DNA of 62,153 bases from an uncultured bacterium (lineage in GTDB: Bacteria; Zixibacteria; MSB-5A5; JAABVY01; JAHJOQ01), in the NCBI GenBank assembly GCA_965369655.1, contig CBDUQR010000013.1, positions 1 to 62,153 on the forward strand, read 5' to 3'. Below the pieces are notes generated by a model. It was not told where the DNA came from and did not search any database. It was given only the letters and a program-made list of their open reading frames with translations. Below, piece after piece: positions 207 to 24,787 of this stretch (positions are counted from its first letter, which is position 1; each line of letters begins with the position of its first letter). The translations under genes were made by a program, and so were the position numbers.

Positions 207-222
207 TGGCAAGTCGATTGCT
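207..222 (+). promoter_or_regulatory. sigma54 (-24/-12) promoter of the redox/glutamate synthase operon
   Basis: TGGCAAGTCGATTGCT matches TGGCACG-N4-TTGCW with exact GG-N10-GC spacing. Confidence 0.7.
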
Positions 223-438: not shown

Positions 439-735
439 ATGTTGAGCGTAAGTAAAATCAGTTCGGTTGGTCTCTGTTCGACTTGCAATAATTCGACTTC
501 GTGTGTATATAGGAAGAAACGTGGGATGGATGCCATCTACTGCGAGATGTTTGATGGCTATGCTCTGCCGGAAAGCAGGGATAATGGAGATCATGATAAA
601 GAGACAGCGTTACCGACGACAGAGACAACAGTACAGTCAAATTTCAAAGGACTTTGCATCAACTGCGATAACAGGGACTTCTGTACTCTTCCACGACCAG
701 AAGGGGGTGTGTGGCACTGTGAGGAGTACTGTTAG
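439..735 (+). CDS. small Cys-rich protein with two CxxC-x5-C-x11-C repeats
   Basis: LCSTCNNSTSCVY...IYCEMF and LCINCDNRDFCTL...WHCEEY; first gene of operon. Confidence 0.75.
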   Translation: MLSVSKISSVGLCSTCNNSTSCVYRKKRGMDAIYCEMFDGYALPESRDNGDHDKETALPTTETTVQSNFKGLCINCDNRDFCTLPRPEGGVWHCEEYC

Positions 736-780
736 TCCGTTTCGCGGATGTCTGACCACTCAAGAATAGGAAATCTTAAA

Positions 781-1632
781 ATGAACTCCCAAGAGAACGA
801 ATCTGTTGTTGCTAATGCTATAGATAATTACGGTGGATTGATAGCGGTCCTTGAAGAGATTCAGGCCAAGTATGGATATTTGCCAGAGAAAGTCTTGCGC
901 GAAGTATCGGAGGAAACCGGGCGCTCGCTGGTTGACATATATGGAGTCGCGACGTTTTACAGAGCGTTCAGCCTGGAACCTCGTGGCAAGCATCTCGTTT
1001 CGGCATGTCTTGGGACGGCCTGTCACGTGCGCGGCGGGCCGGCAATCGCAAAGGAGATCGAGCGTCAGCTCGGCATCAGAGCTGGCGAGACAACTGCGGA
1101 TAAGGAGTTCACTTTCGAGACTGTGAATTGCCTCGGTGCATGTGCCTTAGGTCCTGTCATTGTTGTCGATGGCCATTACTTTCCCAAGGTGAAAACTTCC
1201 CAGATCACTGATATCCTCAGGAAAGCCAGCGAAGGCATCGACAAGATCGAAGTTGAAACCGACCAGCGAGTCTTCCCACTTGATGTGAGTTGTGCTCGCT
1301 GCAATCACAGTCTGATGGACCCTCGACACATTATTGATGGTCATCCTCCCATTCGCATAACAGTTTCATTTGAGGATAAACATGGCTGGATGACTCTGTC
1401 CAGCCTTTATGGCAGTTATCAAGTGGATTGCGAGTATACGATTCCTCCTGATACCATCGTTCACGTGTTCTGTCCTCATTGCCATGCTGAGCTGATAGGT
1501 GGCGCAAAATGTCCGGAGTGTGCAGCTCCAATGATTCCGATGATTGTTCGTGGTGGCGGTGTAGTTCAGATATGCAGCCGAAGAGGATGCAAAGGACATA
1601 TCCTGGACCTTGGTGGAGCATCAATTGATTGA
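781..1632 (+). CDS. NuoE/HydC-like [2Fe-2S] subunit with C-terminal Cys-rich domain
   Basis: GVATFY, CLGTACHVRG, NCLGACALGP motifs; extra CxxC motifs in the C-terminal ~115 aa; alternative start 748. Confidence 0.9.
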   Translation: MNSQENESVVANAIDNYGGLIAVLEEIQAKYGYLPEKVLREVSEETGRSLVDIYGVATFYRAFSLEPRGKHLVSACLGTACHVRGGPAIAKEIERQLGIRAGETTADKEFTFETVNCLGACALGPVIVVDGHYFPKVKTSQITDILRKASEGIDKIEVETDQRVFPLDVSCARCNHSLMDPRHIIDGHPPIRITVSFEDKHGWMTLSSLYGSYQVDCEYTIPPDTIVHVFCPHCHAELIGGAKCPECAAPMIPMIVRGGGVVQICSRRGCKGHILDLGGASID

Positions 1633-1667
1633 CCCGCGAATGACTTGCGAGCAGGAGAGAAGGAAAA

Positions 1668-4600
1668 ATGGAAAAGTCCTTATCAGTTAAGGAATTCAGC
1701 AGATTTCGTCAGCGTATACTGAGCGAAAGAGACACGGAATACGATAAACCTACACTCGTAATATGCGCTGGTACAGGTGGACTAGCCAGCGGATCCAACG
1801 ACGTCATTCGCGTGATCAAGCGGTACATCCTGGAAAGGAGCATGCAATACAAGATACAGCTTCGGATAACGGGGTGCCAGGGATTTTGCGAGATGGACCC
1901 GTTTATTCTTGTAGAGCCCGGGAGACAACTGTATCCAAAACTGAAGATGGAAGATGTGCCTCGAGTGATCGAAGCAGCAGTCGGAGGCTATATCGTCGAT
2001 GAATTGATTTACAAAGATTCACGCGATCAAAAATGCTATCACTGTCAGAACGATATTCCCTTCTTTGGGAAGCAGACACGGACTATCCTGGGAAACAACG
2101 AGCATCTGGACCCAATTAGAATATTCAACTACATCGAAGTAGGTGGTTACTCGGCGTTGGAGAAGGTTCTGAGTAGCCCTGATCCTGACCGTATCATCGA
2201 AGAGGTCAAGAAATCACAGATCAGAGGCCGTGGAGGTGCTGGTTTCCCCACTGGCAAGAAGTGGGAGCTTGCCAGAGCTTCGAAGAGCCCGGATGGACAG
2301 AAGTTCATCGTCTGCAATGCTGATGAAGGCGATCCGGGTGCGTACATGGACAGGAGTCTTCTGGAGGGTAATCCGCATGTAATCATCGAGGGGATGATAA
2401 TAGCTGGTATTGCTATCGGAGCTACTCAGGGTCTCATCTATGTACGAAGTGAATATCCCCTGGCAATCAAGCATGCATTGATTGCTTTGCGACAAGCCCG
2501 TGATATGGGCATTCTCGGAGAGAATATCTTAGGCACTGGCATTGACTTCGATATAGAAGTGGTCAGAGGCGCCGGAGCATTCGTCTGCGGAGAAGAGACT
2601 GCTCTGATCAAGTCGATCGAGGGGTTCATGGGCGAGCCCAGACAGCGCCCGCCATATCCGATAGAGAAAGGCATAAGAAATCGGCCAACGTGCATAAACA
2701 ATGTCGAAACATTAGCCAATATACCTGTCATCATTGACAAGGGCGCAGAGGAGTATATCAAGGTAGGGGTTCCGGGAAATACGGGGACCAAGATATTCTC
2801 GCTCGTCGGAAAGATACGAAACACGGGACTGGTTGAAGTTCCTCTTGGCATGAAGATAAGCGAAGTGGTCTATGACATAGGCGGCGGAGCTGTCGGCAAG
2901 GCCAGGATCAAGGCCGTACAGACCGGCGGTCCTTCGGGAGGATGTATCCCCGCCAGTATGTTCGATATGCCGATAGACTATGACAGCTTGGCGGAGGCAG
3001 GCTCCATCATGGGTTCCGGCGGCATGATCGTCATGGACGAAAACACGTGCATGGTTGATATGGCGAAGTATTTCATGAGTTTTCTGAAAGACGAATCCTG
3101 CGGGAAATGCTTCACCTGCCGCAAGGGAACTCAGCGGATGTATGAGATACTTGATGACATATCAAAGGGCAAAGCGACGCTGAAAGATCTGGATCTTTTG
3201 GAAGAGCTCGCTTATGCGGTCAAAGACACTACCATGTGTGGTCTCGGGCAGTCGGCTCCGAATCCAGTGCTCAGTACCTTAAGATATTTCCGAAAGGAAT
3301 ATGAACGACACATAGTAGATAAGAGATGTGATGCGTTTGTGTGCAAGGACCTGGTCGGGGCGCCGTGCCAGTCCGCATGTCCGGTGGGGACACAAGCCTG
3401 GCGTTACGTCGCTCACATAGCTCGCAACGAGTATGAAGAGGCTTACAGTGTAATACGGGAAGCGAATCCATTCCCGTCGGTATGTGCTCGCGTGTGCGAC
3501 CACCTTTGTGAGGAAAGATGTCGCCTTGGAACGAGCGGCGATGATCCTGTGGCAATACGAGCGCTGAAACGCTTCGTGACTGATCGGATTGATCCATCGA
3601 CCTATGTACCTGCCAGAAAACCATGGCCATCCGATAGTCCTCCTTCCGTCGCGGTTATCGGTTCCGGCCCGGCTGGATTGACTACTGCTCATTATCTCTC
3701 GCTGCATGGGTGTAAGGTTACGGTCTTTGAGGCAGAGAGCGAACCCGGCGGAATGCTCTACTGTGCCATACCTTCATACAGATTGCCGCGCGATATTATC
3801 AGGAAGGAGATCGAGAGCCTGCTTGACGAGAATGTAACACTCAAGTGTAACAGCGCACTGGGACGGGATTTCACTGTTGCAAAGTTGCTCGATGGTGGTT
3901 ACAGTGCGGTTCTGCTTGCCATGGGAGCTCACAAGAGTCGGCCGCTCCAGCTTGAGAACGAAGATGCTGACGGCATATATCCTTCTATCGAATTCCTGAA
4001 AGCGTTCAATCTCAGGGACGAGCAACTTGCCAAAGGTCGCGTTGGCGTAATCGGAGGAGGAAACTCTGCGATTGACGCCGCACGGATGGCAACGCGACAG
4101 AAAGATGTTGACAGCGTAGCTATCCTCTACCGAAGGACTCGCGAAGAGATGCCGGCATTTTCCGAAGAGATCGAGGCTGCGGAGCAGGAAGGTGTGGAGA
4201 TCAAGACGCTGTTGACTCCAAGGAAAGTCCTGACGACAAAGGGTCATCTCTCCGCTCTGGAATGCGTCAGGAATGAGTTGGGTGACACCGATTCGAGCGG
4301 GCGGCGCAGACCGGTTCCGATTGAGGACACTGAACACACAATCGAACTCGACACCCTGATTGTGGCAATAAGTGAAGACAGCGGTACGGACTGCATATCT
4401 CCGGCCAAGTCAAGTGGAATCGAGATTACCAAGTGGAATACTGTTCAGATCGATGCCAAAACCATGCAGACGAACAAGGCAGGAGTGTTTGCAGCAGGCG
4501 ATGTTACGACTGGTCCCAATACTGTTATCGAAGCAATAGCAGCCGGCAAGAAAGCGGCATTCATGATTGAAAGGTATCTCCTGGGAGGAGAGCTGGCCCA

Positions 4601-4862
4601 ACCCGTTGAGCCGACCTTGCCGAAAGTCTATGTCGAGCCTGCAAGTGCGGACATGGTCGAAGCACAGGAAGGCGGTCGGGTCGAGACGCCCCGCGCATCG
4701 GTTGATTGGAGAAAGCGGAATTTCGCAGAAGTTGAGGTATCTTTGTCTGCTCAGGAGGCTACTCGCGAAGCCTGCAGATGCCTCAGATGCGATCTGGAGT
4801 TTACCAAGCCCAAAGAGAGCGAAGAGCAACATGCCGAACCGGCAGCCGTCGGAGGTAAGTGA
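1668..4862 (+). CDS. NuoF/HydB-like FMN/NADH subunit fused to a GltD-like FAD/NADPH oxidoreductase domain
   Basis: RGRGGAGFPTG, ADEGDPG, GAGAFVCGEET, GGPSGG, ESCGKCFTCRKG; then APCQSACP, CARVCDHLCEERC, GSGPAG, GGGNSAID, YRR, FAAGD. Confidence 0.92.
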   Translation: MEKSLSVKEFSRFRQRILSERDTEYDKPTLVICAGTGGLASGSNDVIRVIKRYILERSMQYKIQLRITGCQGFCEMDPFILVEPGRQLYPKLKMEDVPRVIEAAVGGYIVDELIYKDSRDQKCYHCQNDIPFFGKQTRTILGNNEHLDPIRIFNYIEVGGYSALEKVLSSPDPDRIIEEVKKSQIRGRGGAGFPTGKKWELARASKSPDGQKFIVCNADEGDPGAYMDRSLLEGNPHVIIEGMIIAGIAIGATQGLIYVRSEYPLAIKHALIALRQARDMGILGENILGTGIDFDIEVVRGAGAFVCGEETALIKSIEGFMGEPRQRPPYPIEKGIRNRPTCINNVETLANIPVIIDKGAEEYIKVGVPGNTGTKIFSLVGKIRNTGLVEVPLGMKISEVVYDIGGGAVGKARIKAVQTGGPSGGCIPASMFDMPIDYDSLAEAGSIMGSGGMIVMDENTCMVDMAKYFMSFLKDESCGKCFTCRKGTQRMYEILDDISKGKATLKDLDLLEELAYAVKDTTMCGLGQSAPNPVLSTLRYFRKEYERHIVDKRCDAFVCKDLVGAPCQSACPVGTQAWRYVAHIARNEYEEAYSVIREANPFPSVCARVCDHLCEERCRLGTSGDDPVAIRALKRFVTDRIDPSTYVPARKPWPSDSPPSVAVIGSGPAGLTTAHYLSLHGCKVTVFEAESEPGGMLYCAIPSYRLPRDIIRKEIESLLDENVTLKCNSALGRDFTVAKLLDGGYSAVLLAMGAHKSRPLQLENEDADGIYPSIEFLKAFNLRDEQLAKGRVGVIGGGNSAIDAARMATRQKDVDSVAILYRRTREEMPAFSEEIEAAEQEGVEIKTLLTPRKVLTTKGHLSALECVRNELGDTDSSGRRRPVPIEDTEHTIELDTLIVAISEDSGTDCISPAKSSGIEITKWNTVQIDAKTMQTNKAGVFAAGDVTTGPNTVIEAIAAGKKAAFMIERYLLGGELAQPVEPTLPKVYVEPASADMVEAQEGGRVETPRASVDWRKRNFAEVEVSLSAQEATREACRCLRCDLEFTKPKESEEQHAEPAAVGGK

Positions 4863-4864
4863 GA

Positions 4865-5542
4865 ATGATCACACTCAAGATTAATGGTCTCAAGGTCACT
4901 GTCGAACCGGGCACCACTCTACTCGAAGCTGCAAAATATGTCGGATTTCCCATTCCGACGTTATGCCACATGGAGGGACTTTCGCCGTACGGGGCGTGCA
5001 GGTTGTGCGTCGTTGAAATAGGAGAAGGCTCAAGGTCCCGACTGGTATCTTCCTGCACTTATCCGGTCGAGGAGGGTCTGGTAGTTCGCACAGCCTCTTC
5101 ACGCGTTTTGAGAGCTCGCAGGATGGTAATAGAGCTGCACCTCGCTTCATGTCCACAGTCAAAAGTGATCCAGGACCTGGCCGCGAAGCATGGCGTCCAT
5201 CAGCAGCGATTCCATCAGGAATACGAAGACTGCATCCTGTGCGGACTATGCGTTCGGATGTGCGAAGAACAGATGATGGCGAAGGCAATAGGATTCAGGG
5301 GACGTGGAGAGAATCGCAGCATCGGGACGCCATTTGATATCCAGTCGGATGTTTGCAGATTGTGCGGTGGCTGCATTTATGTCTGCCCCGCTTGCACTCT
5401 CAGGTGTACATACAATGAACCCGAGAAGGCGGTCTGCGGCGCGTGCGCAAACCTGCGGCCCCCATGTGTTGAAAAAGATGAATTTGATGATATGATGTGT
5501 TACATGGACCCATGTGTTGCATGTGAGATAAAGAAAAACTGA
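4865..5542 (+). CDS. NuoG/HydA N-terminal-like Fe-S subunit ([2Fe-2S] + 2x[4Fe-4S]) with Cys-rich tail and no catalytic domain
   Basis: IPTLCH, GACRLCVVE, SC; CILCGLCVRMC and CRLCGGCIYVCP. Confidence 0.88.
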   Translation: MITLKINGLKVTVEPGTTLLEAAKYVGFPIPTLCHMEGLSPYGACRLCVVEIGEGSRSRLVSSCTYPVEEGLVVRTASSRVLRARRMVIELHLASCPQSKVIQDLAAKHGVHQQRFHQEYEDCILCGLCVRMCEEQMMAKAIGFRGRGENRSIGTPFDIQSDVCRLCGGCIYVCPACTLRCTYNEPEKAVCGACANLRPPCVEKDEFDDMMCYMDPCVACEIKKN

Positions 5543-5564
5543 ATTTGCTAACGGAGGAAGAGGG

Positions 5565-7154
5565 ATGTCAATTACGCTCTCAAAAATAAACGCTACCGCC
5601 GCAACCCTCACAAAGAATCGGACGGAAGGATCGGTTTGTCCCAACTCGGGAATGTGTGTTACGTGCGTGGATGGCTGCATCGGGATGTGCGAAATCGGCA
5701 AGTCGGCCTACAGAGGTCACGAAGTAATCTATCCGCAACCATTCGGTGTCATCACGACAGCTTCTGAAAAGACCTACCCGGTAGACTATTCTCACTTTAA
5801 CATAATGGGAACTGCCGTCGGAGCGAAGGGCATCAAGGCCGACAGCGATGTAGCAATCTTTCCGAACGTCAACCTTGAAGTGGCTTTTGGTCGGGATAAG
5901 GGCTTGAAATACCGTCTCCCGCTGATTATTCCAGGGATAGGATCTACGGACATTGCAAAGAATAACTGGGAAGGCCTGGCGATAGGGACCGCTCTTGCGG
6001 GAACCGGCCTGACAATCGGCGAGAACGTCGTTGGAATGGACCCCGAGGCGACTTTCAAGAATGGTCGTGTAGTCGATACGGTGGACCTCAAGCGACGGGT
6101 GAAGCTGTTCACGGACCATCAGCGTGACGGATACGGCGCAATCATTGTGCAGGCGAACATAGAGGACACGCGACTCGGCGTGCAGGAGTACGCGATCGAG
6201 AAGCTTGGCGTAAAAATTGTCGAGATGAAGTGGGGTCAGGGCGCGAAAGATATCGGGGGCGAGGTGAAGGTCAAGAGCCTCAAGAAAGCCCAGATGCTCT
6301 ATGACCGGGGATATGTGGTGCTGCCCGATCCGACAGACCCTGATGTAATCAAGGCTTTCGAACGCGGGGCTTTCAAGGAGTTCGAGAGACATTCTCGTGT
6401 TGGGATGGTCGAAGAGGAAGCCTTTGCCAAACGAGCCGAAGAATTGCGCGCTGCAGGAGCAAAATACGTGTCGTTGAAGACTGGCGCGTATACCCCGGCG
6501 GATCTTGCACGGGCGATTAAGTTCTCTTCAAAGTATGGTATTGACTATCTGACGGTTGATGGCGCCGGGGGTGGCACCGGCATGAGTCCGTGGAGAATGA
6601 TGAACGAATGGGGAGTTCCTCCTGTTGAGTTGCATTCGCTGCTCTACCAATATGCGAAGCGCCTCGCAGACAAAGGAGAGTATGTACCTGATCTCATTCC
6701 GGCGGGTGGGTTCACTTTCGAGGATCAGATGTTCAAGGGATTGGCTCTGGGTGCTCCTTATGTGAAACTCATCGGAATGGCACGCAGTCCGATTGCAGCA
6801 GCGATGGTTGGAAAGACCATTGGAGCGGCTGTCAAGGCCTACGAGTTACCGGTATATATCGAGCGTTTTGGTACCAGTCTTGACGAGATATTCGTCACGT
6901 CGGGCGAACTTCGAAAGGAACTCGGAGACAAGGAATTCGAAGCTCTGCCAGCCGGTGCAATCGGCTTGTACACTTACTACGAGCGTCTTGCCCAGGGACT
7001 GAAGCAGCTTATGTGCGGCAGCCGTAAGTTCAGCCTTGAGTACATTGAAAGAACCGACATCGCAGCCCTGACGCACGAAGCGGCTGAAATAAGCGGCATT
7101 CAGTATATCATGGACGCAACAAAAGATGAGGTCGACACGATTCTCGATAGCTGA
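5565..7154 (+). CDS. FMN-binding glutamate synthase family protein (stand-alone synthase-type domain)
   Basis: EMKWGQGAKDIGG, DGAGGGTG, KGLALGA motifs; N-terminal CPNSGMCVTCVDGCIGMC. Confidence 0.85.
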   Translation: MSITLSKINATAATLTKNRTEGSVCPNSGMCVTCVDGCIGMCEIGKSAYRGHEVIYPQPFGVITTASEKTYPVDYSHFNIMGTAVGAKGIKADSDVAIFPNVNLEVAFGRDKGLKYRLPLIIPGIGSTDIAKNNWEGLAIGTALAGTGLTIGENVVGMDPEATFKNGRVVDTVDLKRRVKLFTDHQRDGYGAIIVQANIEDTRLGVQEYAIEKLGVKIVEMKWGQGAKDIGGEVKVKSLKKAQMLYDRGYVVLPDPTDPDVIKAFERGAFKEFERHSRVGMVEEEAFAKRAEELRAAGAKYVSLKTGAYTPADLARAIKFSSKYGIDYLTVDGAGGGTGMSPWRMMNEWGVPPVELHSLLYQYAKRLADKGEYVPDLIPAGGFTFEDQMFKGLALGAPYVKLIGMARSPIAAAMVGKTIGAAVKAYELPVYIERFGTSLDEIFVTSGELRKELGDKEFEALPAGAIGLYTYYERLAQGLKQLMCGSRKFSLEYIERTDIAALTHEAAEISGIQYIMDATKDEVDTILDS

Positions 7155-7592: not shown

Positions 7593-7626
7593 ACGGGGCT
7601 GCTGCAATGGCAGCCCCGTCGCTTTT
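7593..7626 (+). terminator. intrinsic terminator-like hairpin
   Basis: ACGGGGCTGC-N7-GCAGCCCCGT followed by CGCTTTT. Confidence 0.6.
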
Positions 7627-7925: not shown

Positions 7926-8696
7926 TTAGCCCTGTACCAGCCCCAGCACCGATTTCGACATCAGGTTGCCTTGCGCAAGCAGAGCAGTGCCGATATTGAC
8001 CTTCAACTTCTGCGCAACAAGCTCGGTCTGAAGCTTCGCCATGTCTGCATCCCTAATTACCGATTCCGATTCAGTCAAATTCTGATGAGTGACAGCCAGG
8101 TTCCTGCGCATGGACTGAACCTCGTACGCAGATTTCGCACCAAGTTTGCCATGGACACTGTGCAGCTCAGCAAGCTTGTCATCAATCTTTTCGACAGCCT
8201 GCTGCGCCTGCTCGGGATCCGACAGATCGAACGTCGAGAGTTCATCGATATCCGCGACACTCCCCTCGGAGCCATCGAACAGTTCAGTATTTCCGAACGA
8301 GGCCTCATCAGCTATCCGGTTGACCGACCGGACAGTGTCATTCATAACCGACTCATACGTCTCGATCATGCTCTCGTCGGCATAACCGGTCGACAATGCA
8401 GCGACTGCCACCTCGCGCATATTGATGAGCTGCTCCTCCATCTGCATCAGGTGGGAATCGGCAGTCCTGTTTTTCGCGAGAACTAAGTCGAGATTTGTGA
8501 TCTCCTTCGCGATCGACCCGATCTGGGCACGCATATTCTCCGATATGACCAACCCTGCAGGGTCATCCGATGCCCTGTTAATCTTCTCCCCGGAAGACAA
8601 CTTCTCCATTGTCTTCCTCATCGACCTGTGCATGGTCGACAGATTGCGAACGGTGTTCAGAGTCCCCAGATTTGTGTTAATTGACAATCCCATCAT
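7926..8696 (-). CDS. minimal flagellin-family protein (D0/D1 only)
   Basis: INTN...LSSGEKINRASDDPAGLVISE N-terminus; SESVIRDADMA...ALLAQGN C-terminus; 256 aa. Confidence 0.88.
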   Translation of the reverse strand: MMGLSINTNLGTLNTVRNLSTMHRSMRKTMEKLSSGEKINRASDDPAGLVISENMRAQIGSIAKEITNLDLVLAKNRTADSHLMQMEEQLINMREVAVAALSTGYADESMIETYESVMNDTVRSVNRIADEASFGNTELFDGSEGSVADIDELSTFDLSDPEQAQQAVEKIDDKLAELHSVHGKLGAKSAYEVQSMRRNLAVTHQNLTESESVIRDADMAKLQTELVAQKLKVNIGTALLAQGNLMSKSVLGLVQG

Positions 8697-8954: not shown

Positions 8955-9425
8955 ATGGCGCTCAGTGAAATTGATATACAAAAGATTATCGACCTTGTGT
9001 CGGGTCAGGTCAGGGATCGCGATCTCCCGCCGAAGGTACTGCGGCAGGTGATCCTGCAGGTTGTAGATCGTCTCGAAGGACGAATCGTGCCGCAGCCATC
9101 GACGCCTGAATTAAAATCGACCGGGCTCTATGATTCTATCGAGAAGACGAATTCGAGCCGTGTGATTATTTCGGCATTCGGCAAAGATCGCCCCGGCGTT
9201 GTCGCCGCAATTGCGAATACGCTCGCAGACGGGAATATCACGATTCAGGATATTCAGCAGAATATCATGCAGGAGTTTTTCGGCATGATAATGATCGCGG
9301 ATATGTCGGGCGCCACGATCTCATTCGACGACCTCAAATCATCCTTAGACGAAATCGAATCCTCCCTCGGCTGCAAAATCCTCACTCAACACGAGGATAT
9401 TTTCAGGTATATGCATAGGATATAG
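8955..9425 (+). CDS. ACT domain protein (UPF0237-like) with N-terminal extension
   Basis: GKDRPGVVAAIA...IQDIQQNIMQEFFGMIM...QHEDIFRYMHRI. Confidence 0.8.
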   Translation: MALSEIDIQKIIDLVSGQVRDRDLPPKVLRQVILQVVDRLEGRIVPQPSTPELKSTGLYDSIEKTNSSRVIISAFGKDRPGVVAAIANTLADGNITIQDIQQNIMQEFFGMIMIADMSGATISFDDLKSSLDEIESSLGCKILTQHEDIFRYMHRI

Positions 9426-9427
9426 GC

Positions 9428-11290
9428 TCAGAGCGGGAGATCATCAACATTGTCAGTGCTTCTTCTCCCTGACTCTTCACCTTCAGGTATCATCTTCAGT
9501 TCCAAGCTAGGCAATTCTGGTAGTGATGCCCCGACTATTCCCTGCATATCACCATATATAGTGGATAGATTCAAGAATATTCCATTCATTTGCTTCTCGC
9601 GCTTACTCCAAAGCCTTTGCATTGCCCGCTTCTCTTTGTCCAGCTCGGCCTTCATATTTACAAAAGTGTCAAGGGCGGCACTGAATTTACGTCCGAATTC
9701 GGGTCCGGATAAATACATGTAGAGCAGTTCCATTTTCTGAGACTTACCCTCCATTGAAGCTGTTGCATGCGCAACTTCAATAATGCCAGCCCGCAGTGCC
9801 GTGGTCAATCCAATAGCTGAGCTCCACGTTGTCACCCAGATGCCATCTATCTCACCAAAGCTCTCAATGGATTTTGGAAGTGTCTTCGTAACGATTATCC
9901 CGATGGAGGCTTTGGCGGAAAGTTGATCATTCTTCAGTTTCTCAATCCAGGCGTTACTCCAATTGCTCGTTCTCTTCGATTCCCACAAGATGAGGCCGCA
10001 CTTTTTTCCCGATGGAGAAAATACAACCTGCGTAACATCGGCTCCCTTCCTACCCGCGGGCACGGGATCAATGTCGTCTTCAGGAAATGCTGCTCGTAGA
10101 ATATCCTCAAGTTCTAACTCCTGTAGTTCCCCATGAAGCTGCTCGGAACCCCTATCTGCGCGCTTTCTAGTCTCTTCAAGCTGCTTGGTTAGGTCCTCCA
10201 TATTTTTCTGGTATTCCCGCTTTTCAATCCTGCGTTGTTCTTCAACTCTCTTCACAGCTGTCTCTTCAATCCGGCCTCGCCCTTTCTCAAGTTTGCGTGC
10301 CACAGATAGCTCGACTTCTTTCTTTTCTTCCTCCAACTCGCTACTCTTCTTTATCAGTTCCAGTTCACGCTTCCTGAAAGTACCCAACTTAGCCGATTGA
10401 TCCTTCACTTGCGTTCTGAGACTCTCCAGTTCAGTTCCTGTTTCTCCAGCAATTTCCTCCCGAAGTGACTTCTCCAATTCCGCCTTCTTTTTGGCCAGCT
10501 CATCAGCGACCAATTTGTCGAATGACTCCCTCTCAATCACCAGTGCTTCTTTCCGTTTTTCGATTGCCCTCTTCTCTTTTTCGAGTTGTCTTTCCTTCTC
10601 CAAGACTGGAGCCTCTAATTCGGATCGCAATTGCTTCTTCAACGTCTTTTCTATCTGAGATCGCTCCTCATCCACCTTCCTTGCCACTGTCAGACCAATA
10701 TCTTTCTTCTCTTCTTCGAGCTTTTGTTTTGCAGTTCTCAATTCAAGCTCTTTGTTCCTGAAATCTTCAATTCTAGTTGCCTGCTCTTCCAGTTGCTCAT
10801 GGAGATCGTCGACTTCGGATCGCAGTTGCTTTTTCAATGTCTTTTCTATCTGAGCTCGCTCCTCATCCACCTTTCTTGCCACTGTCAGGTCAATCTCTTT
10901 CTTCTCTTCTTCGAGCTTCTGGTTCGCAGTTCTCAATTCAAGCTCTTTCTTCCTGAAATCGTCAAGCTTGGCAGCCTGATTCTCAACCTGAGTCTGGAGA
11001 CTTTCAACCTCTGAATTGACTTCTTTCTCTATCTTCTCGCGAAGTTCTCTTTTCAGTTTTTCTTTTTCCTTGGATAATTCTGTGACTTTGAATTCATCAA
11101 ACGACTTCATATCAGCCGCAAGTTCGCTTCTTTGCTCCTCGATATTCTTCTTTTCCTGTTTAACCTCCTCTCGCAATTTCAGAGTTGGCAACTCCAATTC
11201 AACCCGCATTTCTTCTCTGACTTTTTCCATCAGAGCTTCAGACATTTGGAATTCATTATGACATAGCGGGCAAGTAATCAGGTCGGACAT
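9428..11290 (-). CDS. DUF2130-like coiled-coil protein with N-terminal CxxC and C-terminal PD-(D/E)xK-like region
   Basis: ITCPLC; GSEQLHGELQELELE, GADVTQ, ILWESKRT. Confidence 0.8.
   Translation of the reverse strand: MSDLITCPLCHNEFQMSEALMEKVREEMRVELELPTLKLREEVKQEKKNIEEQRSELAADMKSFDEFKVTELSKEKEKLKRELREKIEKEVNSEVESLQTQVENQAAKLDDFRKKELELRTANQKLEEEKKEIDLTVARKVDEERAQIEKTLKKQLRSEVDDLHEQLEEQATRIEDFRNKELELRTAKQKLEEEKKDIGLTVARKVDEERSQIEKTLKKQLRSELEAPVLEKERQLEKEKRAIEKRKEALVIERESFDKLVADELAKKKAELEKSLREEIAGETGTELESLRTQVKDQSAKLGTFRKRELELIKKSSELEEEKKEVELSVARKLEKGRGRIEETAVKRVEEQRRIEKREYQKNMEDLTKQLEETRKRADRGSEQLHGELQELELEDILRAAFPEDDIDPVPAGRKGADVTQVVFSPSGKKCGLILWESKRTSNWSNAWIEKLKNDQLSAKASIGIIVTKTLPKSIESFGEIDGIWVTTWSSAIGLTTALRAGIIEVAHATASMEGKSQKMELLYMYLSGPEFGRKFSAALDTFVNMKAELDKEKRAMQRLWSKREKQMNGIFLNLSTIYGDMQGIVGASLPELPSLELKMIPEGEESGRRSTDNVDDLPL
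10621..10970. repeat. 195-bp (65-aa) period tandem duplication within DUF2130-like gene
   Basis: CGGATCGC...TCTTTTCTATCTGAG...GCAGTTCTCAATTCAAGCTCTTT recurs at 10621 and 10816. Confidence 0.85.
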
Positions 11291-11675
11291 GGTAGGTACC
11301 TCCTAAACGTTCCCCACGCAGCTCATTCAAGGAGCTGCACTTACAAACAATGCACTGGACTGTACTTAGGGCAAAATATACCGCAAAAACGGAGGATGTC
11401 AAGAGAAGAGCAAGTGTCCTTTAGTCCAAATCGCCGCAGTTAGGTCAGGTACCCATTCATTCCGAATCCAGCAGCGTATGCAGGTAAGTGGTCGGACAAG
11501 ATCGAACACTTGCGACATGCTTCGGAAAGATTCGAATCGGTCTTGTGTGATTTGAATGTCAGATAATCCATGTTGTTTGTTGCGGTGTCGTACAAGGAAC
11601 CGTCGCGGTGGATGTTCAGCAAGCTGTGGGGCACCCCAAGATCATTAGTCCAGATTGATGGTCTTTCAACATGCC

Positions 11676-11747
11676 CCTGCGCGGGAATGACCTCGCTTTC
11701 TTTCGCAAACGTGACCACCAACCTTACATGACTTTTGGGACAACCTC
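11676..11747 (-). mobile_element. partial MITE copy (one TIR plus half REP)
   Basis: Ends CTTTTGGGACAACCTC; internal part is the reverse complement of 15205-15236. Confidence 0.65.
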
Positions 11748-11764
11748 CATATCACTGTCGTGCA

Positions 11765-12211
11765 TCAACCGGCAGTTGAGCTTTTCCTCTCGTCATCCGG
11801 GTCAACTAACTTGTAGTCATAAGTGATATTAGCACTCTTCTTCAGCATAGCCGACACACTGCAGTATTTGTTTTCACTCAGCTCTATTGCTTGTTCAACA
11901 TCAGAGGGGCGGATGTCTGTTCCCGTGAATATATATCTGAGCTTGATGTTGGTGAATACCCTGGGGTGCTCCAACGCTTGTTCTGCCTCGACTTCCATGT
12001 GAAAGTCATTCAGCTTGACACGTTTCTTTCTCAGTATCGATACTACATCCATGGCCGTGCAGCTTGCCAGGCCCATAAGCAGCAATTCCATTGGACGAGA
12101 TCCAGCCGAAAAACCGCCGAACTTTTCGGGGCCATCCGTAGTGACCCAGTGCCCTGAATCGCTGACCGCAGCCATGGCAAGTCCACTGATTTGCTTTAGT
12201 TTCACTTTCAT
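11765..12211 (-). CDS. OsmC/YhfA family protein
   Basis: RPMELLL, ASCTAMDV, KYCSVS; start moved to MKVKLK behind GAGGA SD. Confidence 0.88.
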   Translation of the reverse strand: MKVKLKQISGLAMAAVSDSGHWVTTDGPEKFGGFSAGSRPMELLLMGLASCTAMDVVSILRKKRVKLNDFHMEVEAEQALEHPRVFTNIKLRYIFTGTDIRPSDVEQAIELSENKYCSVSAMLKKSANITYDYKLVDPDDERKSSTAG

Positions 12212-12269
12212 GTTGCTTTCCTCACTTCTCTGGTTGGCTATGTGCCAGGATATGAACGGCACATGATCT

Positions 12270-12333
12270 GAGGTTGTCCCAAAAGGTCTGACAGGTTGGT
12301 GTTCATGCTTTTCGGATCTTTTGGGATAGCCTC
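12270..12333. mobile_element. minimal 64-bp MITE
   Basis: TIRs GAGGTTGTCCCAAAAG ... CTTTTGGGATAGCCTC. Confidence 0.7.
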
Positions 12334-12416
12334 TGGACACGAGTCCTGAGCTTCGAAGGATCTGCCGCTCACAACATGTTTTCTCCGTTGTTTGAAAGAT
12401 ATAAACTGAGCGCAGA

Positions 12417-14621
12417 TTACCTGACTGTAATAATACCGAGACCTCTTGCTTCAGCCTGACCGATTATCGTGGCATCGAGAACACCGGCGTCGTGGAGCGC
12501 CTTTACTGCTTTCTCGGCCTGATTCGGTTCTATCGCAGCGAGCAGGCCACCCGATGTCTGCGCATCGCAGATCAGCGCCTTTGTGGCATGATCCAGCGAC
12601 TGTGGCCATTCGACTTTGCCTTCCACATATTCCATATTCGAGACAGTGCCACCCGGAATCGCGCCCGTAACCGCAACCTCGCGCGCACCATCGATGAACG
12701 GTATGCTGCTGCTCTCCAAAGTCATGTCGACACCGCTCGCTACAGCCATCTCGTGGAGATGACCGGCGAGACCAAAACCTGTCACATCGGTGCAGGCATG
12801 AATCTCGAATCGAGACAGCACATCGGCCGCCGTCTTGTTGAGAGTCGACATAAGATTGAGTAGAATATCTGCTACCTCGGGACCGACAGTGCCCTGCTTG
12901 GCTGCCGTGGCGAGCAGCCCGGTGCCGATAGATTTCGTCAGGATAATCCTGTCGCCGGGCCTGGCGCCGCGATTTGTCCAGATGCGTGAGGGATCGACTA
13001 TTCCTGTCACAGCGAGTCCATACTTCGGCTCTGTGTCATCGACTGTATGCCCACCGATAATGCTTATGCCAGCTTCTTTCGCTTTGTCGTGCGCTCCTCG
13101 CAGGATATCGACGAGAACCGATTGCGGCAGCCTGTTCGATGGAAAACAGACGACCGACAGCGCAAAGAGCGGTTTTGCACCCATAGCGTAGATGTCCGAA
13201 AGCGAATTGGCAGCCGCGATCTGACCGAATCCGTATGGATCATCCACTATCGGAGTGAAAAAATCGACTGTCTGCACAATAGCTGTCTTCTCATCGATCA
13301 GGTAGACCGCAGCGTCATCAGATGATTCGGTACCGACAAGCACATTCTCATCATCAGACGACGGCAGCTTGCTGAGCACTTCTTCGAGCATCTGCGGTCT
13401 CAGCTTGCATGCGCAACCGAGACCATGAGTAAACCTGGTTAGCTTGTATTCGCCCGACTCCGCCTCGACGGATGCAATGCCTGTGGCAGTTTCGCTCAGG
13501 CTGCCGACGACGCGTCGCAGTTCATCGAATGCTGCGTCGATATCGTCGTCTGTCGTCCCGCGACCTGTCGAGATTCGCAGAGTACCCATCGCTATATGTT
13601 CGGGCACTTCCATCGCAACCAGCACATGAGAAACATCCACCGAGTCGGTATGACACGCCGCGCCAGCCGATACCGCAATGCCGACAGCTTCAGAGATTAT
13701 CGTATTCGCTTCGACATTCGGAAAGCTCACGCTCAACGTGTTGGGCAGCCGCTTCTCGATATGACCGTTTATTTTCATCTGTGGGAACTCGTCAACGAGA
13801 AGCTGCTGCATTCTGTCGCGCGTCCGGGACATGTTCGCCGAGTATTCATTCAGATTCATGCCTGCAAGCCGACATGCCGTGCCCAATCCGACGATTTCAA
13901 GGACATTTTCCGTACCGGCGCGGCGATTTGCTTCGTGATCCGCACCGAACATGAATTTTTCGAGGTCGATCCCGCGACGAATATAGAGCGCGCCGATGCC
14001 CTTGGGAGCATATAGCTTATGACCGGCGATGCTGAGCATGTCTACACCGAGATCATTCACGCGGGTCGGGATCTTGCCGACAGCCTGCGCGGCATCCGTA
14101 TGCAGGCATATAACCCTGTCCTTCAGGATCTCCGCAATCTCCGAGATCGGCTGCAACGTTCCGACTTCGTTGTTGGCCAGCATCACTGTCACGAGAATCG
14201 TATCGTCGCGGATAGCCTTCTCGAATTCATCGAGGCGTATGATCCCATCTTTGTCGACCGAGACATACGTTACATCGAAACCGTAGCCTTCGAGATACCG
14301 GCAGACCTCGAGCACCGCAGGATGTTCGATCTGCGATGTGATAATATGCCTGCCCTTCTGTCGGTTCGAGAATGCGTAACCGCGAATTGCGTAGTTGTTC
14401 GACTCGGTGCCACCGCTTGTGAAAACAATTTCATCGGGACCGCAGCCGAGCATATTCGCCACCTGCGAACGCGCCGTCTCGATGGCGGCACGGGTACGGA
14501 ATCCATAGTAGTGGCCGGACGATGGATTGCCGAAATCTTCCTTCAAATATGGAAGCATGGCATCAGCCACTTCCGGATCAATCGGCGTCGTAGCGTTGTA
14601 ATCGAGGTATATCGGTTTCAC
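12417..14621 (-). CDS. selD: NifS-like cysteine desulfurase/selenocysteine lyase fused to selenophosphate synthetase
   Basis: IYLDYNATTP, FTSGGTES, AGHKLYAPKG, SAGAACH; then GLGCACKL, DDAAVY, QTVDFFTP, TDVTGFGL, DAQTSGGLL; probable GTG start 14621 (track 14672). Confidence 0.9.
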   Translation of the reverse strand: MKPIYLDYNATTPIDPEVADAMLPYLKEDFGNPSSGHYYGFRTRAAIETARSQVANMLGCGPDEIVFTSGGTESNNYAIRGYAFSNRQKGRHIITSQIEHPAVLEVCRYLEGYGFDVTYVSVDKDGIIRLDEFEKAIRDDTILVTVMLANNEVGTLQPISEIAEILKDRVICLHTDAAQAVGKIPTRVNDLGVDMLSIAGHKLYAPKGIGALYIRRGIDLEKFMFGADHEANRRAGTENVLEIVGLGTACRLAGMNLNEYSANMSRTRDRMQQLLVDEFPQMKINGHIEKRLPNTLSVSFPNVEANTIISEAVGIAVSAGAACHTDSVDVSHVLVAMEVPEHIAMGTLRISTGRGTTDDDIDAAFDELRRVVGSLSETATGIASVEAESGEYKLTRFTHGLGCACKLRPQMLEEVLSKLPSSDDENVLVGTESSDDAAVYLIDEKTAIVQTVDFFTPIVDDPYGFGQIAAANSLSDIYAMGAKPLFALSVVCFPSNRLPQSVLVDILRGAHDKAKEAGISIIGGHTVDDTEPKYGLAVTGIVDPSRIWTNRGARPGDRIILTKSIGTGLLATAAKQGTVGPEVADILLNLMSTLNKTAADVLSRFEIHACTDVTGFGLAGHLHEMAVASGVDMTLESSSIPFIDGAREVAVTGAIPGGTVSNMEYVEGKVEWPQSLDHATKALICDAQTSGGLLAAIEPNQAEKAVKALHDAGVLDATIIGQAEARGLGIITVR

Positions 14622-14757
14622 ATCGGCTCCCGAGGTTGGGATTAGAGCTTGTCCAGGACTCCCTGGAGACATTCATAAGCTTTTAATGTGTATTCCATTT
14701 TAGCCATTTTCCCCCCAGAGGAATCAGAATATGTTCACACAGATTGTACAATCATTA

Positions 14758-14860
14758 TCGACCGCGATTATCTTGATATTCGGGTTTTCTCCTTCAGAAA
14801 TCTCCCGACACCGGAAACCGTACCGCCGGTGCCGATACCTGCAACGAAGTAATCGATGCG
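14758..14860 (-). pseudogene. frameshifted fragment of a PLP-dependent cysteine synthase/CBS family gene
   Basis: Manual translation [25 protein letters not shown], one-base shift, then (N)PNIKIIAVD. Confidence 0.75.
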
Positions 14861-15007
14861 ACTCTCATGGTCTCCATCCGCAGTTAGATTTCGTAGTCCA
14901 CGCCGGTCAATATAGCAAACAAAACGCACAGAGCCAAATGTTCCGCGCAGTCAACAGGAAGTGTGTGTTCATCAGACCGTGGACCGTGGGCGGCAGACGT
15001 CCTCGCA

Positions 15008-15049
15008 AAGTCCTGAGCCTCGAAGGGCAAGTCCTGAGCCTCGAGGGGC
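15008..15049. repeat. 21-bp tandem dimer of the GTCCTGAG-N-CGAAGG micro-module
   Basis: AAGTCCTGAGCCTCGAAGGGC AAGTCCTGAGCCTCGAGGGGC. Confidence 0.8.
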
Positions 15050-15164
15050 CTGCCCTAATTACCTGCCGGTCGATAGTCAGGTCTCAGGTCACACTTGCGC
15101 TTTGCGCAATCAAGACCTGACACAACAAGAAACGATCACTGATTTCATGGACGGCAGATGTGGA

Positions 15165-15305
15165 GAGGTTGTCACAAAAGGCCTGATAGGTTGGTGTTCA
15201 TGCTTGCGAAAGAAAGCGAGGTCATTCCCGCGCAGGCACTTCGCTTTGCTCAGGATATCACGGGAATCCATTGAATGCGTTATAGTTAAATAGATTCCCG
15301 CCTCC
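15165..15305 (+). mobile_element. MITE carrying a REP doublet, truncated by IS1182 remnant
   Basis: Starts GAGGTTGTCACAAAAG; internal GTCATTCCCGCG...GGGAATCC matches copies at 22967 and 33765. Confidence 0.7.
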
Positions 15306-16256
15306 GGGCTTGTTGAGAAACCTCTGTTTTTGCCGAACGCGTGTCAGATGCATCGGAATTGGACGGTTGATTCTTGTTTTCGGCAAATATATCCCAGAAT
15401 GAACTCCAATAGGGTCCAGAGAACTCTCAGGAGTGATTTGATAGTGCATTTCAGGCCAATAAAGCGGGCCATCAGCCGCTTCAGGTTGATAACCGTCGCT
15501 ATCAACAGACTCTGAACCAGCATCTTAGACAAACCGTGCTTCCAGGCTCTTCCCAAACCATGCCACTGCTTCGCCTCAGCAAAGACTCCCTCGATTACCG
15601 GAGCACGTGCCCTGTACAATCGCCTGAAACTGCCTGTCCTGCTGTCAGCACGCAAACGAACCAAAGATTCATGATGAACCCCTACTGTCGTGTCCCGGAT
15701 ATATGTTCATATATTCTTTTGTAGTAGCACGGGTATCCTGCCCGTGAATCATGGGCAAGATGCCCATGCCACGATTTAATATGCCGCTTTTTATTGTGAA
15801 TGGATTCCTGGGACATGATACTACATTCAAATGACGGCATCTGCCAGGTGCACAAGAAGCCTTCAGTGCACAATCCCTGTCCCTCAGGATCCCCTCTCCC
15901 ACGGGATCCCGGAGGGAGAAGATCGGGGTCAATGACGGGATCAGCGACCGACACATGACGCATCAACTCACGCACGTGGGAGATGCCATCCATCGCCTGG
16001 ATCAGGAACAGCCGGACGATAACTTCAGGATCAATCGATGGACGACCGTTATCCTGGCAGTACCGATCGCGTACGAAATCGTGGATGAAACTCAGATCAA
16101 GTACACGATTCAGGCGATAAAGATAATGATCCTTAGGAATCAAACTCTCCAACGGCGGGAGGAGCGTCATCTCCTGTTGAAATTGCTCTCGTTTTGTTTG
16201 CATAGCCACAATCAACACTATTCAACGCTGATCTAAAGGACTTTTTCAACAAGCCC
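15306..16256 (-). mobile_element. internally deleted IS1182-family element (transposase pseudogene)
   Basis: TIRs GGGCTTGTTGAGAAA / TTTTTCAACAAGCCC; N-terminal part LIPKDH...GRPSIDP (to 16218) and C-terminal IEGVFAEAKQWHGL...INLKRL (15344-15664); middle replaced by unrelated DNA. Confidence 0.85.
15724..15772. repeat. GTAG-type REP doublet inside IS remnant
   Basis: GTAGCACGGGTATCCTGCCCGTG and CATGGGCAAGATGCCCATGCCAC hairpins in inverted arrangement. Confidence 0.65.
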
Positions 16257-23461: not shown

Positions 23462-24787
23462 GTGGCGCTTACAAAAGATGATGTCCTCAAGCAGATCAAA
23501 AAGAACGGCGTCAAGTATATACGGCTCTGGTTTACCGACATTCTCGGACAATTAAAGGGAATGTCGATCACCCTGAGTGAGATCGAGAACGTACTCAACG
23601 ACGGGCAGGGGTTCGACGGATCATCGATCGAGGGTTTCGTGCGAATCGAGGAATCTGATCTGATGGCGTGGCCCGATCTCGATACATTCTACATCTTCCC
23701 GTGGGATATGGGCGGCGAGAAGGTGGCGATGATGTTCTGCGACATCAAGAATCCCGATGGCACTCCATACGACGGTGATCCAAGATATTGCTTGCGGAGA
23801 AACCTCGAGGCGGCATCCAAGCTCGGATTGACATTCTATGTCGGGCCGGAGCTTGAGTATTTCTACTTCAAGAGCAGCAAGAATCCGGAGACGATGGATA
23901 CCGGCGGTTACTTCGACTACTCGACTGTGGATGATGGCGTACGGCTCAGGAAGAAAACAGTCAAGTTCCTCGAACAGGTCGGTGTTCCTGTCGAATGTTC
24001 GCATCACGAAGTTGCTCATAGCCAGCACGAGATCGATCTGCAGTACCAGAGCGCCTTGAAGATGGCCGATTTTGTGCAGATATATCGCCTGATTGTCAAA
24101 GAAGTCGCGCAGCATGACGGCTTCTACGCCACTTTCATGCCGAAGCCTATTTTCGGTCAGAACGGCAGCGGCATGCATGTTCATCAATCGCTCTTTAATG
24201 GCGACAGGAACATATTCTTTGCACCGGGCAACGACTACAACCTCTCGGATGATGCAAAGTACTATATGGCCGGACTGCTTCGTTATGTGAAGGAATTCGC
24301 TCTCGTCACCAACCAGTGGGTCAACTCATACAAGCGGCTCGTGCCCGGATACGAGGCTCCGTGTTATATCTCGTGGGGCAGGCGGAACCGGTCATCACTA
24401 TTAAGGGTGCCGATGTATCGGATCGGCAAGGAGAAGGCGACTCGAATCGAGCTTCGCAGCCCCGATCCTGCATGCAACCCATATCTCGCGTTTTCGGTTA
24501 TGCTGGCGTCGGGACTCAAGGGCATGCGTGAGAAGTATGAACTGTCTGAACCTGTCGAGAAGAACATATTCCACATGACCGAGAAGGAGAAAGAAGCGCT
24601 GAAGATTGATGTGTTGCCTAAGAATCTCCTCGATGCCATCTGGGCGGCTGAGGAATCTGCGCTGATGAAAGAAGCACTCGGCGATCACATATTCTCATCT
24701 CTGATCGCGAACAAGAAGGTCGAGTGGGACGCTTACAGGACGCATGTATCACAGTACGAGCTTGACAAGTATTTGCCCATGCTGTAA
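23462..24787 (+). CDS. glnA: glutamine synthetase type I
   Basis: FDGSSIEG, HHEVA, TFMPKP, NGSGMHVH, RIELRSPDP. Confidence 0.95.
   Translation: MALTKDDVLKQIKKNGVKYIRLWFTDILGQLKGMSITLSEIENVLNDGQGFDGSSIEGFVRIEESDLMAWPDLDTFYIFPWDMGGEKVAMMFCDIKNPDGTPYDGDPRYCLRRNLEAASKLGLTFYVGPELEYFYFKSSKNPETMDTGGYFDYSTVDDGVRLRKKTVKFLEQVGVPVECSHHEVAHSQHEIDLQYQSALKMADFVQIYRLIVKEVAQHDGFYATFMPKPIFGQNGSGMHVHQSLFNGDRNIFFAPGNDYNLSDDAKYYMAGLLRYVKEFALVTNQWVNSYKRLVPGYEAPCYISWGRRNRSSLLRVPMYRIGKEKATRIELRSPDPACNPYLAFSVMLASGLKGMREKYELSEPVEKNIFHMTEKEKEALKIDVLPKNLLDAIWAAEESALMKEALGDHIFSSLIANKKVEWDAYRTHVSQYELDKYLPML

Follow-up and report, generated by a model that had tools for sequence, protein, structure and literature searches.

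Bfu enzymes constitute a recently recognised energy-saving route of anaerobes. To our knowledge, the characterised members all use H2, NADPH, or aldehydes as the third substrate, and formate, CO, and others have been predicted in that position. Here, we describe an operon of five genes in a 62,153-nucleotide (nt) stretch of DNA from an uncultured bacterium of the Zixibacteria (contig CBDUQR010000013.1, positions 1 to 62,153; the whole stretch is called the window, and its start coincides with the contig end). The operon, at positions 439-7154 of the window, encodes a small Cys-rich protein, three subunits of the NuoE, NuoF, and NuoG types (E, F, and U), and a protein of 529 amino acids (aa) from the flavin mononucleotide (FMN)-binding glutamate synthase family. 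It is real and nearly unchanged across hundreds of mostly uncultured bacterial species. Comparisons of the encoded proteins suggest one soluble Bfu-family Fe-S flavoenzyme complex, the catalytic barrel of which would most likely interconvert 2-oxoglutarate plus NH4+ and glutamate, a reading that we favour tentatively and rate at a little less than an even chance. We infer the assembly of four of the proteins into one complex, its substrate, its direction, and any electron bifurcation.

WorABCSL of Acetomicrobium mobile (PDB 9MQX) is a tungsten aldehyde oxidoreductase of the Bfu type. Passages of its report describe WorA as a short BfuA without the A3 cluster that joins the extra catalytic subunits via a C-terminal zinc finger and helix (PMC12318220). 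NfnABC and StnABC (PDB 9BOV, 9N5U, 8OH5; PMC10482914, PMC12018979) are Bfu-type NADH/NADPH/ferredoxin transhydrogenases for which three subunits suffice. In these enzymes, a GltD-like module is inserted in BfuA (StnC/NfnA) and feeds the mid-potential path, the GltD-like part of StnC being the NADPH entry according to the Stn paper, and BfuB keeps a ferredoxin-like domain. In the canonical glutamate synthase GltBD (PDB 1EA0, 2VDC, 6S6S; PMC8097209), GltD is the natural partner of GltB, as passages on the pair put it. A putative glutamate synthase of methanogens that depends on F420 (FGltS) has been proposed from genomes in a section of PMC3448663.

The preliminary description of this DNA, made from its letters alone, had put the complex forward as a candidate for an undescribed one, and full-text searches of the literature turned up no account of a glutamate-synthase-type subunit in a Bfu/NuoEF complex. 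In the main text of Schut et al. 2022, neither glutamate synthase nor GltB or GltD comes up, and 17 BfuB clades are left without an assignment. What appears to be new here is the catalytic module of a Bfu enzyme, together with where its NADPH module is placed. If a glutamate-synthase-type third module is correct, electron bifurcation would be tied to central nitrogen and amino-acid metabolism.

Conservation of the operon and its Bfu-type core

With one genome scanned per species, at least 594 loci came to light, of which the best 80 were fetched; the synteny counts given here rest on those 80, and the denominators for E, F, and U are the loci with enough upstream DNA. The FMN proteins of the best 80 loci are the closest orthologs (78-84% identity). 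The order E-F-U-FMN protein is kept, with U adjacent in 75/75 loci, F in 65/65, and E in 60/60, and the gaps between U and the FMN gene in relatives are ~20-30 nt. The preliminary description had named a synthase-family gene not conserved beside E, F, and U as a finding that would speak against its proposal; because the gene adjoins them in every judgeable locus, this objection falls away. E, F, U, and the FMN protein are the conserved core of the operon.

The best 80 loci span about a dozen phylum names. Carriers are found in the Zixibacteria, Planctomycetota (including Candidatus Scalindua), Ignavibacteriota, Acidobacteriota, Bacteroidota, and Latescibacterota, and further in the Chlorobiota, Krumholzibacteriota, Coatesbacteria, Neomarinimicrobiota/Fidelibacterota, Desulfatiglans, and others. 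The FMN protein has more than 8000 relatives among protein clusters at 90% identity; the best 120 matching clusters show 80-90% identity, and those that bear a name are listed as 'FMN-binding glutamate synthase family protein' or as 'glutamate synthase domain-containing protein 2'. An identity of ~80% across phyla implies strong constraint. In eight loci of distant homologs of the FMN protein (43-61% identical), E/F/U were seen only beside one 70% copy, so that the partnership is a property of the close family only. A quick tree of the F core has the phyla freely intermixed, a pattern that fits horizontal spread of the operon. The carriers include sediment phyla whose physiology has been deduced mainly from annotation (Zixibacteria, Planctomycetota with an anammox genus, Ignavibacteriota, Acidobacteriota, and Latescibacterota), and piecemeal annotation of such genes as NADH dehydrogenase subunits plus an 'FMN-binding glutamate synthase family protein' can misdirect reconstructions toward complex I or canonical glutamate synthase (GOGAT).

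Within 439-7154, five open reading frames (ORFs) were called on the + strand, with intergenic gaps of 12, 35, -4 (an overlap), and 22 nt. ORF calls and Pfam matches recover the NuoE, NuoF::GltD, NuoG-N, and FMN genes listed in the preliminary description, which left unmentioned a 98-aa Cys-rich ORF that its start coordinate takes in. As that description had also stated, no H-cluster or molybdopterin domain was found by Pfam or NCBIfam in any of the five proteins. A hydrogenase or formate dehydrogenase reading was excluded on this ground.

E (748..1632, + strand; 294 aa) is a NuoE/HydC/BfuC-like [2Fe-2S] subunit with a Cys-rich C-terminal extension. It matches the Pfam family 2Fe-2S_thioredx (NuoE type) at an E-value of 2.4e-44, the NCBIfam assignment to NuoE/HoxE agrees, and its top PDB match is HydC (8a6t_C, 147 bits). 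C87, C92, C128, and C132, together with the Cys from C182 to C281, are 98-100% conserved in 54 relatives, and E has the NuoE-type [2Fe-2S] cluster site (C1) by which a BfuC is recognised. The extension of ~130 aa (residues 165-294) contains eight invariant Cys and gives weak zinc-ribbon matches.

U (4859..5542, + strand; 227 aa) is a short BfuA-like (NuoG-N/HoxU-like) Fe-S subunit. Pfam matches to Fer2_4 (4.1e-18) and a 4Fe-4S dicluster domain, with one [2Fe-2S] and two [4Fe-4S] motifs, and an NCBIfam assignment to HoxU/NuoG give it the N-terminal [2Fe-2S] plus [4Fe-4S] domain of BfuA, which the N-termini of WorA and HydA match. The top PDB match is WorA (9mqx_A, 247 aa), with 127.5 bits over residues 4-192. 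Eight further invariant Cys lie in the last 50 residues (the tail, residues 179-222), and conservation across 52 relatives is 94-100% for every Cys of the cluster motifs and the tail. The Cys of the E extension and of the U tail have no counterpart in solved HydC and loosely resemble the WorA zinc finger. As far as the published passages on WorABCSL go, both systems combine a BfuBC core with a short BfuA (~230-250 aa) that lacks a large C-terminal catalytic domain, and the BfuA of WorABCSL passes electrons to separate catalytic subunits via its Cys-rich C-terminus, a role that U would share by likeness. WorABCSL differs in its partner, a tungstopterin WorL/WorS pair where the window has an FMN triosephosphate isomerase (TIM) barrel, and in addition the ferredoxin-like domain gives way to a GltD module in the window's F, and the window's E adds an eight-Cys C-terminal domain.

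F (1668..4862, + strand; 1064 aa) is an FMN/NADH subunit of the NuoF/HydB/BfuB kind that carries a fused GltD-type module. Pfam finds Complex1_51K (6.7e-45), NADH_4Fe-4S (3.4e-34), Fer4_20 (6.3e-24), and Pyr_redox_2 (1.2e-31), and NCBIfam assigns NuoF plus a GltD-type family, which together make F a NuoF::GltD fusion. Residues 25-567 score 634 bits to subunit B of NiFe-HydABCSL (7t2r_B), 633 to HydB (7q4v_B/8a5e), 615 to WorB (9mqx_B), and 599 to NfnB (9n5u_B), and only 280-380 bits to the NuoF subunits of complex I or formate dehydrogenase (FdsB). The closest PDB matches are thus bifurcating enzymes, which bears out the earlier likening of the module to HydABC and marks E/F/U as HydBC/Bfu-like. 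Against NfnA (9bov_A/9n5u_A) and StnC (8oh5_C), in their GltD-like part, residues 565-1042 score 292-357 bits.

The FMN/NADH domain of BfuB with its [4Fe-4S] cluster (B1) is present in F, and C478, C481, C484, and C524 are 100% conserved. The C-terminal ferredoxin-type domain of BfuB with two [4Fe-4S] clusters (B3/B4) is absent from the window's F, and a GltD-type Fer4_20 two-cluster plus flavin adenine dinucleotide (FAD)/NADPH domain stands in its place. Across the 48 fused relatives that were aligned, the FAD GxGxxG, GGGxxA, and YRR...EMPA columns of this module show 98-100% conservation (100% for GxGxxG, GGGxxA, and YRR), and YRR is taken here as a mark of NADPH preference. The GltD module is present on F in 60/75 loci; the F proteins of the other 15 end after ~616 residues (one of these 15 loci, L069, is a contig-edge fragment and is possibly mislabelled). 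The short-form F that was tested (L022) carries a C-terminal 2x[4Fe-4S] ferredoxin-type domain, as in the canonical BfuB architecture defined by Schut et al. 2022 (IPR017896). At least five switches between fused and short F occur in the quick F-core tree. The earlier proposal of sites for both NADH and NADPH therefore holds for the fused form, with its NuoF part and conserved GltD columns, but the NADPH module is optional, being missing in 15/75 loci.

Parts of the report on NfnABC of T. sibiricus trace a low-potential path from C1 over B3/B4 to ferredoxin, which binds between the BfuC C-terminal domain and the ferredoxin-like domain. This path exits via the ferredoxin-like domain of BfuB, and the NADPH/FAD module of the window's F therefore occupies the usual ferredoxin exit position. 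The natural exchange of a ferredoxin-like domain and an NADPH module at the low-potential exit offers a way to probe the Bfu mechanism. In one Bacteroidota locus (L064), a second gene set at 10426-15815 directly follows an operon of the unfused type; it consists of a NuoE-like protein, a fusion of the NuoF::GltD type with 48% identity, and a NuoG-like protein of 834 aa, and is possibly a paralog of the Nfn/Stn kind or of the formate dehydrogenase/hydrogenase kind.

Since E, F, and U hold all of the module types of NfnABC/StnABC (NuoE, NuoF, NuoG-N, and GltD), they might by themselves constitute an Nfn/Stn-like NADH/NADPH transhydrogenase, the 529-aa protein being a separate, co-transcribed enzyme. 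Both systems do share a HydBC-type core and a GltD-like NADPH/FAD module with two [4Fe-4S] clusters. However, the window type has its GltD module at the C-terminus of F (BfuB) and none in U, its fused form lacks the ferredoxin-like domain that Nfn/Stn use for ferredoxin, and a fourth gene is adjacent in 75/75 loci at the short gaps given above, where three subunits suffice for NfnABC/StnABC. The conserved eight-Cys tail of U has no partner besides the 529-aa protein, and the 15/75 relatives without an NADPH module still carry the 529-aa gene. We consider a transhydrogenase with an unrelated neighbour very improbable, and it is the weakest of the rival explanations because the unfused forms keep the barrel.

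The FMN barrel protein and its possible links to glutamate

The 529-aa protein (5565..7154, + strand) is an FMN TIM-barrel protein of the Glu_synthase family and, judging from Pfam, fold, and motifs, the presumed catalytic subunit. It matches PF01645 with 49 bits (cut-off 20.4) over residues 281-402 only, and NCBIfam holds no matching model. An hhalign comparison with nine canonical GltB sequences, which came from Planctomycetota genomes, gave a probability of 84.8% and an E-value of 6.5e-6 and placed residues 199-461 on GltB 959-1217. In this alignment, the GltB string IKIAQGAKPGEGG pairs with VEMKWGQGAKDIGGE of the 529-aa protein (the KxGQGAK..GGE motif), and GGTGASP of GltB pairs with GGTGMSP. 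We take QGAK..GG to be the active-site motif and GGTGxSP to be the FMN-phosphate motif; the Gln and Lys of QGAK, together with an Arg ~20 residues on, presumably contact 2-oxoglutarate in GltS structures. K222, W223, G224, A227, and E233 are almost invariant in the 529-aa family, and R248, also almost invariant, aligns within one position of the GltB Arg ~20 residues past QGAK.

The AlphaFold model of the 529-aa protein, built on a 53-row alignment with the N-terminal 30 residues unmodelled, is an FMN TIM barrel (pLDDT 84.9). Foldseek matches type 2 isopentenyl diphosphate isomerase (IDI-2), ferredoxin-dependent GOGAT, lactate monooxygenase, and glycolate oxidase at similar E-values. A PDB sequence search with the protein gave no match under an E-value of 0.17. 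Matches of the family profile to the PDB were to de novo designed TIM barrels via one beta-alpha unit, with GltB at an E-value of 0.3, and were set aside as uninformative. The family is compact: a phmmer search of 1.84 billion representatives returned only 1086 matches at an E-value of 0.001 or less, so that canonical GltB is mostly beyond the reach of sequence search; about a dozen of the matches were full-length clusters at 31-57% identity. No fused forms of 927-2645 aa were seen at an E-value of 1e-20 or less, in a search that is weak evidence.

One 800-aa protein (P0268) has an F420-binding module of the FrhB/FdhB type and two 4Fe-4S motifs fused ahead of the same barrel family, and its barrel shares the Cys, QGAK, and GGTGMSP motifs with the 529-aa family. 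It is a candidate F420-dependent version of the barrel enzyme. As the fusion resembles the proposed FGltS, the barrel looks like a catalytic end that takes exchangeable electron-input modules. By the partial account of FGltS in its source, that system also has a stand-alone glutamate-synthase-type subunit with a non-GltD input module; it differs from the window's operon in that the input is an F420-binding FrhB/FdhB-type module and not a Bfu core.

The gene neighbourhoods add to the motifs. A glutamate dehydrogenase (GDH) gene was found in 11/80 loci, mostly co-oriented and adjoining the operon, where by a rough estimate a random 17-kb stretch holds one ~1% of the time; the one GDH tested is an NADP-specific GdhA above the NCBIfam cut-off. 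With the QGAK motif, the GDH neighbours, and the GltD partner in its favour, glutamate/2-oxoglutarate is a plausible substrate. Glutamine synthetase, with the window copy as the query, was found beside the operon in 0/80 loci. The window does carry a gene for glutamine synthetase at 23462-24787, ~16 kb 3' of the operon (Gln-synt_C, 406 bits), which is one of two in the source genome.

The distribution of GOGAT was examined alongside. In a sample of 201 Planctomycetota genomes, 32 have the FMN protein, 67 have a GATase_2 GltB, three have both, and 105 have neither; the copies in the three genomes with both are only 45-62% identical, and GATase_2 is absent from all 11 genomes whose copy reaches 69% identity or more. 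This anticorrelation (Fisher p 0.0017, kinship ignored) lends weak support at best. Canonical GOGAT was also missing in 5/5 other carriers checked. In a sample of 151 genomes of the window's phylum, 69 have the operon's FMN protein. The missing GOGAT was dropped as an argument for replacement, since in this sample it is absent everywhere.

Other genes of the same families were noted. In the source genome, the top PF01645 match is the operon's own 529-aa protein, and Fer4_20 domains are found in a stand-alone 489-aa GltD/NfnB-like protein (154 bits; G000:C37:5559-5891) and in a 1497-aa ORF (G000:C7:57515-57751). Planctomycetota paralogs of the 529-aa protein (43-53% identity) stand without E/F/U in four loci. 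One of them (L090; 49% identical) neighbours a GDH gene and a GAF-sigma-54 activator, another (L092) a GltD-like gene and canonical gltBD, a third (L093) RidA and a Haem_oxygenas_2-family protein, and the fourth (L094) a Haem_oxygenas_2-family protein and a LarA-N-like protein.

A number of observations weigh against the glutamate reading. GltBD and the window's operon share the PF01645 FMN barrel with QGAK and GGTGxSP and a GltD-type NADPH/FAD/2x[4Fe-4S] electron-input module, but the likeness of the 529-aa protein to GltB is only at the profile level, and the amidotransferase (PF00310), central, and GXGXG (PF01493) domains are absent from it. The position that aligns with the GltB [3Fe-4S] motif Cx5Cx4C is free of Cys; invariant Cys are limited to C31, C34, C38, and C42, which form an N-terminal Cx2Cx3Cx3C motif, and a NuoE/NuoF/BfuA module is interposed in the operon. 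The earlier view of the protein as a GltB-type module is thus upheld by PF01645 and QGAK and has to be narrowed to a distant relative without several of the features that define GltB. GATase_2 and GXGXG domains were not found in the source genome, which is 99.5% complete and already encodes two GDH genes. No real GATase_2 (two weak matches) was found in the 151 genomes of the phylum sample, with or without the operon, so the operon is not needed there to replace GOGAT, and the Planctomycetota anticorrelation may reflect lifestyle and kinship alone, given that 105/201 have neither. In VIA-align, IDI-2, flavocytochrome b2, and glycolate oxidase come out level at Z 26-28, and the ties among IDI-2, GltB, and 2-hydroxy-acid oxidases mean that the fold leaves the substrate unfixed.

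These fold ties are also consistent with the same complex acting on another 2-oxo or 2-imino acid or on an unrelated small molecule, the link to glutamate being indirect. The weak, short PF01645 match, the limited phmmer harvest, the paralogs that adjoin RidA, Haem_oxygenas_2-family, and LarA-N-like genes, and the 69/80 loci without GDH all suit such an enzyme, whereas the alignment of QGAK..GG and GGTGxSP with GltB, the GltD module carried by most F proteins, and the GDH genes that adjoin both the main family and one paralog argue for glutamate. On balance, another substrate seems somewhat unlikely, and we retain interconversion of 2-oxoglutarate plus NH4+ and glutamate as the tentatively favoured reaction.

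Proposed electron flow

In the favoured reading, E (BfuC-like) and F (BfuB-like) would form the NADH/FMN core, and U, a short BfuA of the WorA kind, would relay electrons between this core and the 529-aa subunit. The latter would be the catalytic module, an FMN barrel with its own four-Cys cluster motif and a distant, amidotransferase-less relative of the GltB domain. The barrel FMN would reduce 2-iminoglutarate, formed from 2-oxoglutarate and free ammonia, or oxidise glutamate. The fused form would thereby join the NAD(H) couple to those of NADP(H) and 2-oxoglutarate/glutamate, three in all, and ferredoxin would replace NADP(H) in the 15/75 relatives with a short F.

The 2-oxoglutarate/glutamate couple, at ~-0.14 V, is more positive than NAD+/NADH. 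NADH would for this reason be the donor that is split, with one branch running through U to the barrel and the other passing over C1 to reach NADP+ via the GltD clusters and FAD or, in the unfused forms, ferredoxin. For the same reason, 2-oxoglutarate/glutamate could not be a mid-potential donor, unlike the third substrates of the characterised Bfu enzymes, which is a further difficulty for the favoured reading. In a section of Schut et al. 2022, similar roles are proposed for peroxide, quinones, and other third substrates of high potential. Another difficulty is the N-terminal thioredoxin-like [2Fe-2S] region of F (B5), which gives a weak 2Fe-2S_thioredx match at residues 27-103: the site has three of four Cys, with C33 kept in 38% of relatives. 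In the relevant passage of the T. sibiricus NfnABC paper, zinc occupies the B5-type site in the active enzyme.

By analogy with the Bfu enzymes, confurcation, which the preliminary description had raised, or bifurcation by the complex is plausible. The specific form in which the strongly exergonic reduction of 2-iminoglutarate by NADH would drive a second electron pair uphill to NADP+ or ferredoxin, or in which a low-potential donor would in reverse pull glutamate oxidation, is unlikely on present evidence. If true, such an energy-coupling glutamate synthase would tie the provision of low-potential reductant directly to the assimilation of nitrogen or the breakdown of amino acids in many phyla of anaerobes.

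A rival reading is a simple glutamate synthase, non-bifurcating and dependent on NAD(P)H and ammonia, in which electrons would flow linearly, without energetic coupling, from NADPH (GltD) and/or NADH (NuoF) to the FMN subunit. The chain of NADPH-GltS, FAD - 2x[4Fe-4S] - [3Fe-4S] - FMN, is linear in the portions of the literature that describe it, and NuoEF modules also occur in non-bifurcating enzymes, Nqo1 being the non-bifurcating outgroup in Schut et al. 2022. The incomplete N-terminal BfuB cluster site points the same way. Two pyridine-nucleotide sites would, however, be redundant in a linear reductase, the unfused relatives retain a ferredoxin-like domain serving the low-potential branch, and the scores of F and E against bifurcating HydB/NfnB/HydC (560-634 bits) far exceed those against the NuoF of complex I or FdsB (280-380 bits). 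Linear flow is accordingly rated as distinctly improbable.

Putative promoter, flanking genes, and other features

The first ORF of the operon encodes a 98-aa Cys-rich protein (439..735, + strand) with two Cx2Cx5Cx11-12C repeats. No Pfam or NCBIfam family matched it, its Atlas neighbours are all named 'hypothetical protein', and a homolog lies 5' of E in 38/56 related loci.

A sigma-54-type (-24/-12) promoter-like site, TGGCA-N6-TTGCT (TGGCAAGTCGATTGCT), was found by pattern scan at 207..222 on the + strand, 217 nt 5' of the first ORF; the consensus used in the scan is the one that we assume for sigma-54. The pattern has two matches in the window against 0.28 expected, the second exact match being at 25635-25650, within the ORF at 24797-26251. 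The strict pattern is satisfied in only 8/56 related upstream regions; sites that agree in at least nine of 11 specified positions occur in 33/56 upstream regions of relatives versus 0/56 controls, which were stretches taken inside the F gene. Of the 52 loci whose upstream DNA reaches 3 kb, 33 have a REC-sigma54-HTH activator 5' of the operon, and in 30 a histidine kinase accompanies it. The top NCBIfam rows for the activator, AtoC and NtrC, are both under the cut-off, and an identity as NtrC is thus putative. Transcription would start from the sigma-54 promoter and, in relatives, would be under the adjacent pair of histidine kinase and sigma-54 activator. As the operon starts near the contig end, any upstream regulators fall outside the view in this window.

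The sequencing runs that contain this DNA are marine sediment metagenomes, and no RNA run is listed among them. On the 3' side, the operon is followed by genes for a flagellin (7926-8696, - strand), an ACT-domain protein (8955-9425, + strand), and a 620-aa DUF2130 protein (9428-11290, - strand), none of which is kept beside the operon in the 80 related loci. Between the FMN gene and the flagellin gene lies a strong terminator-like hairpin of 12 pairs with a T-rich tail (7593..7619), the first downstream on the + strand, as found by a consensus scan only.

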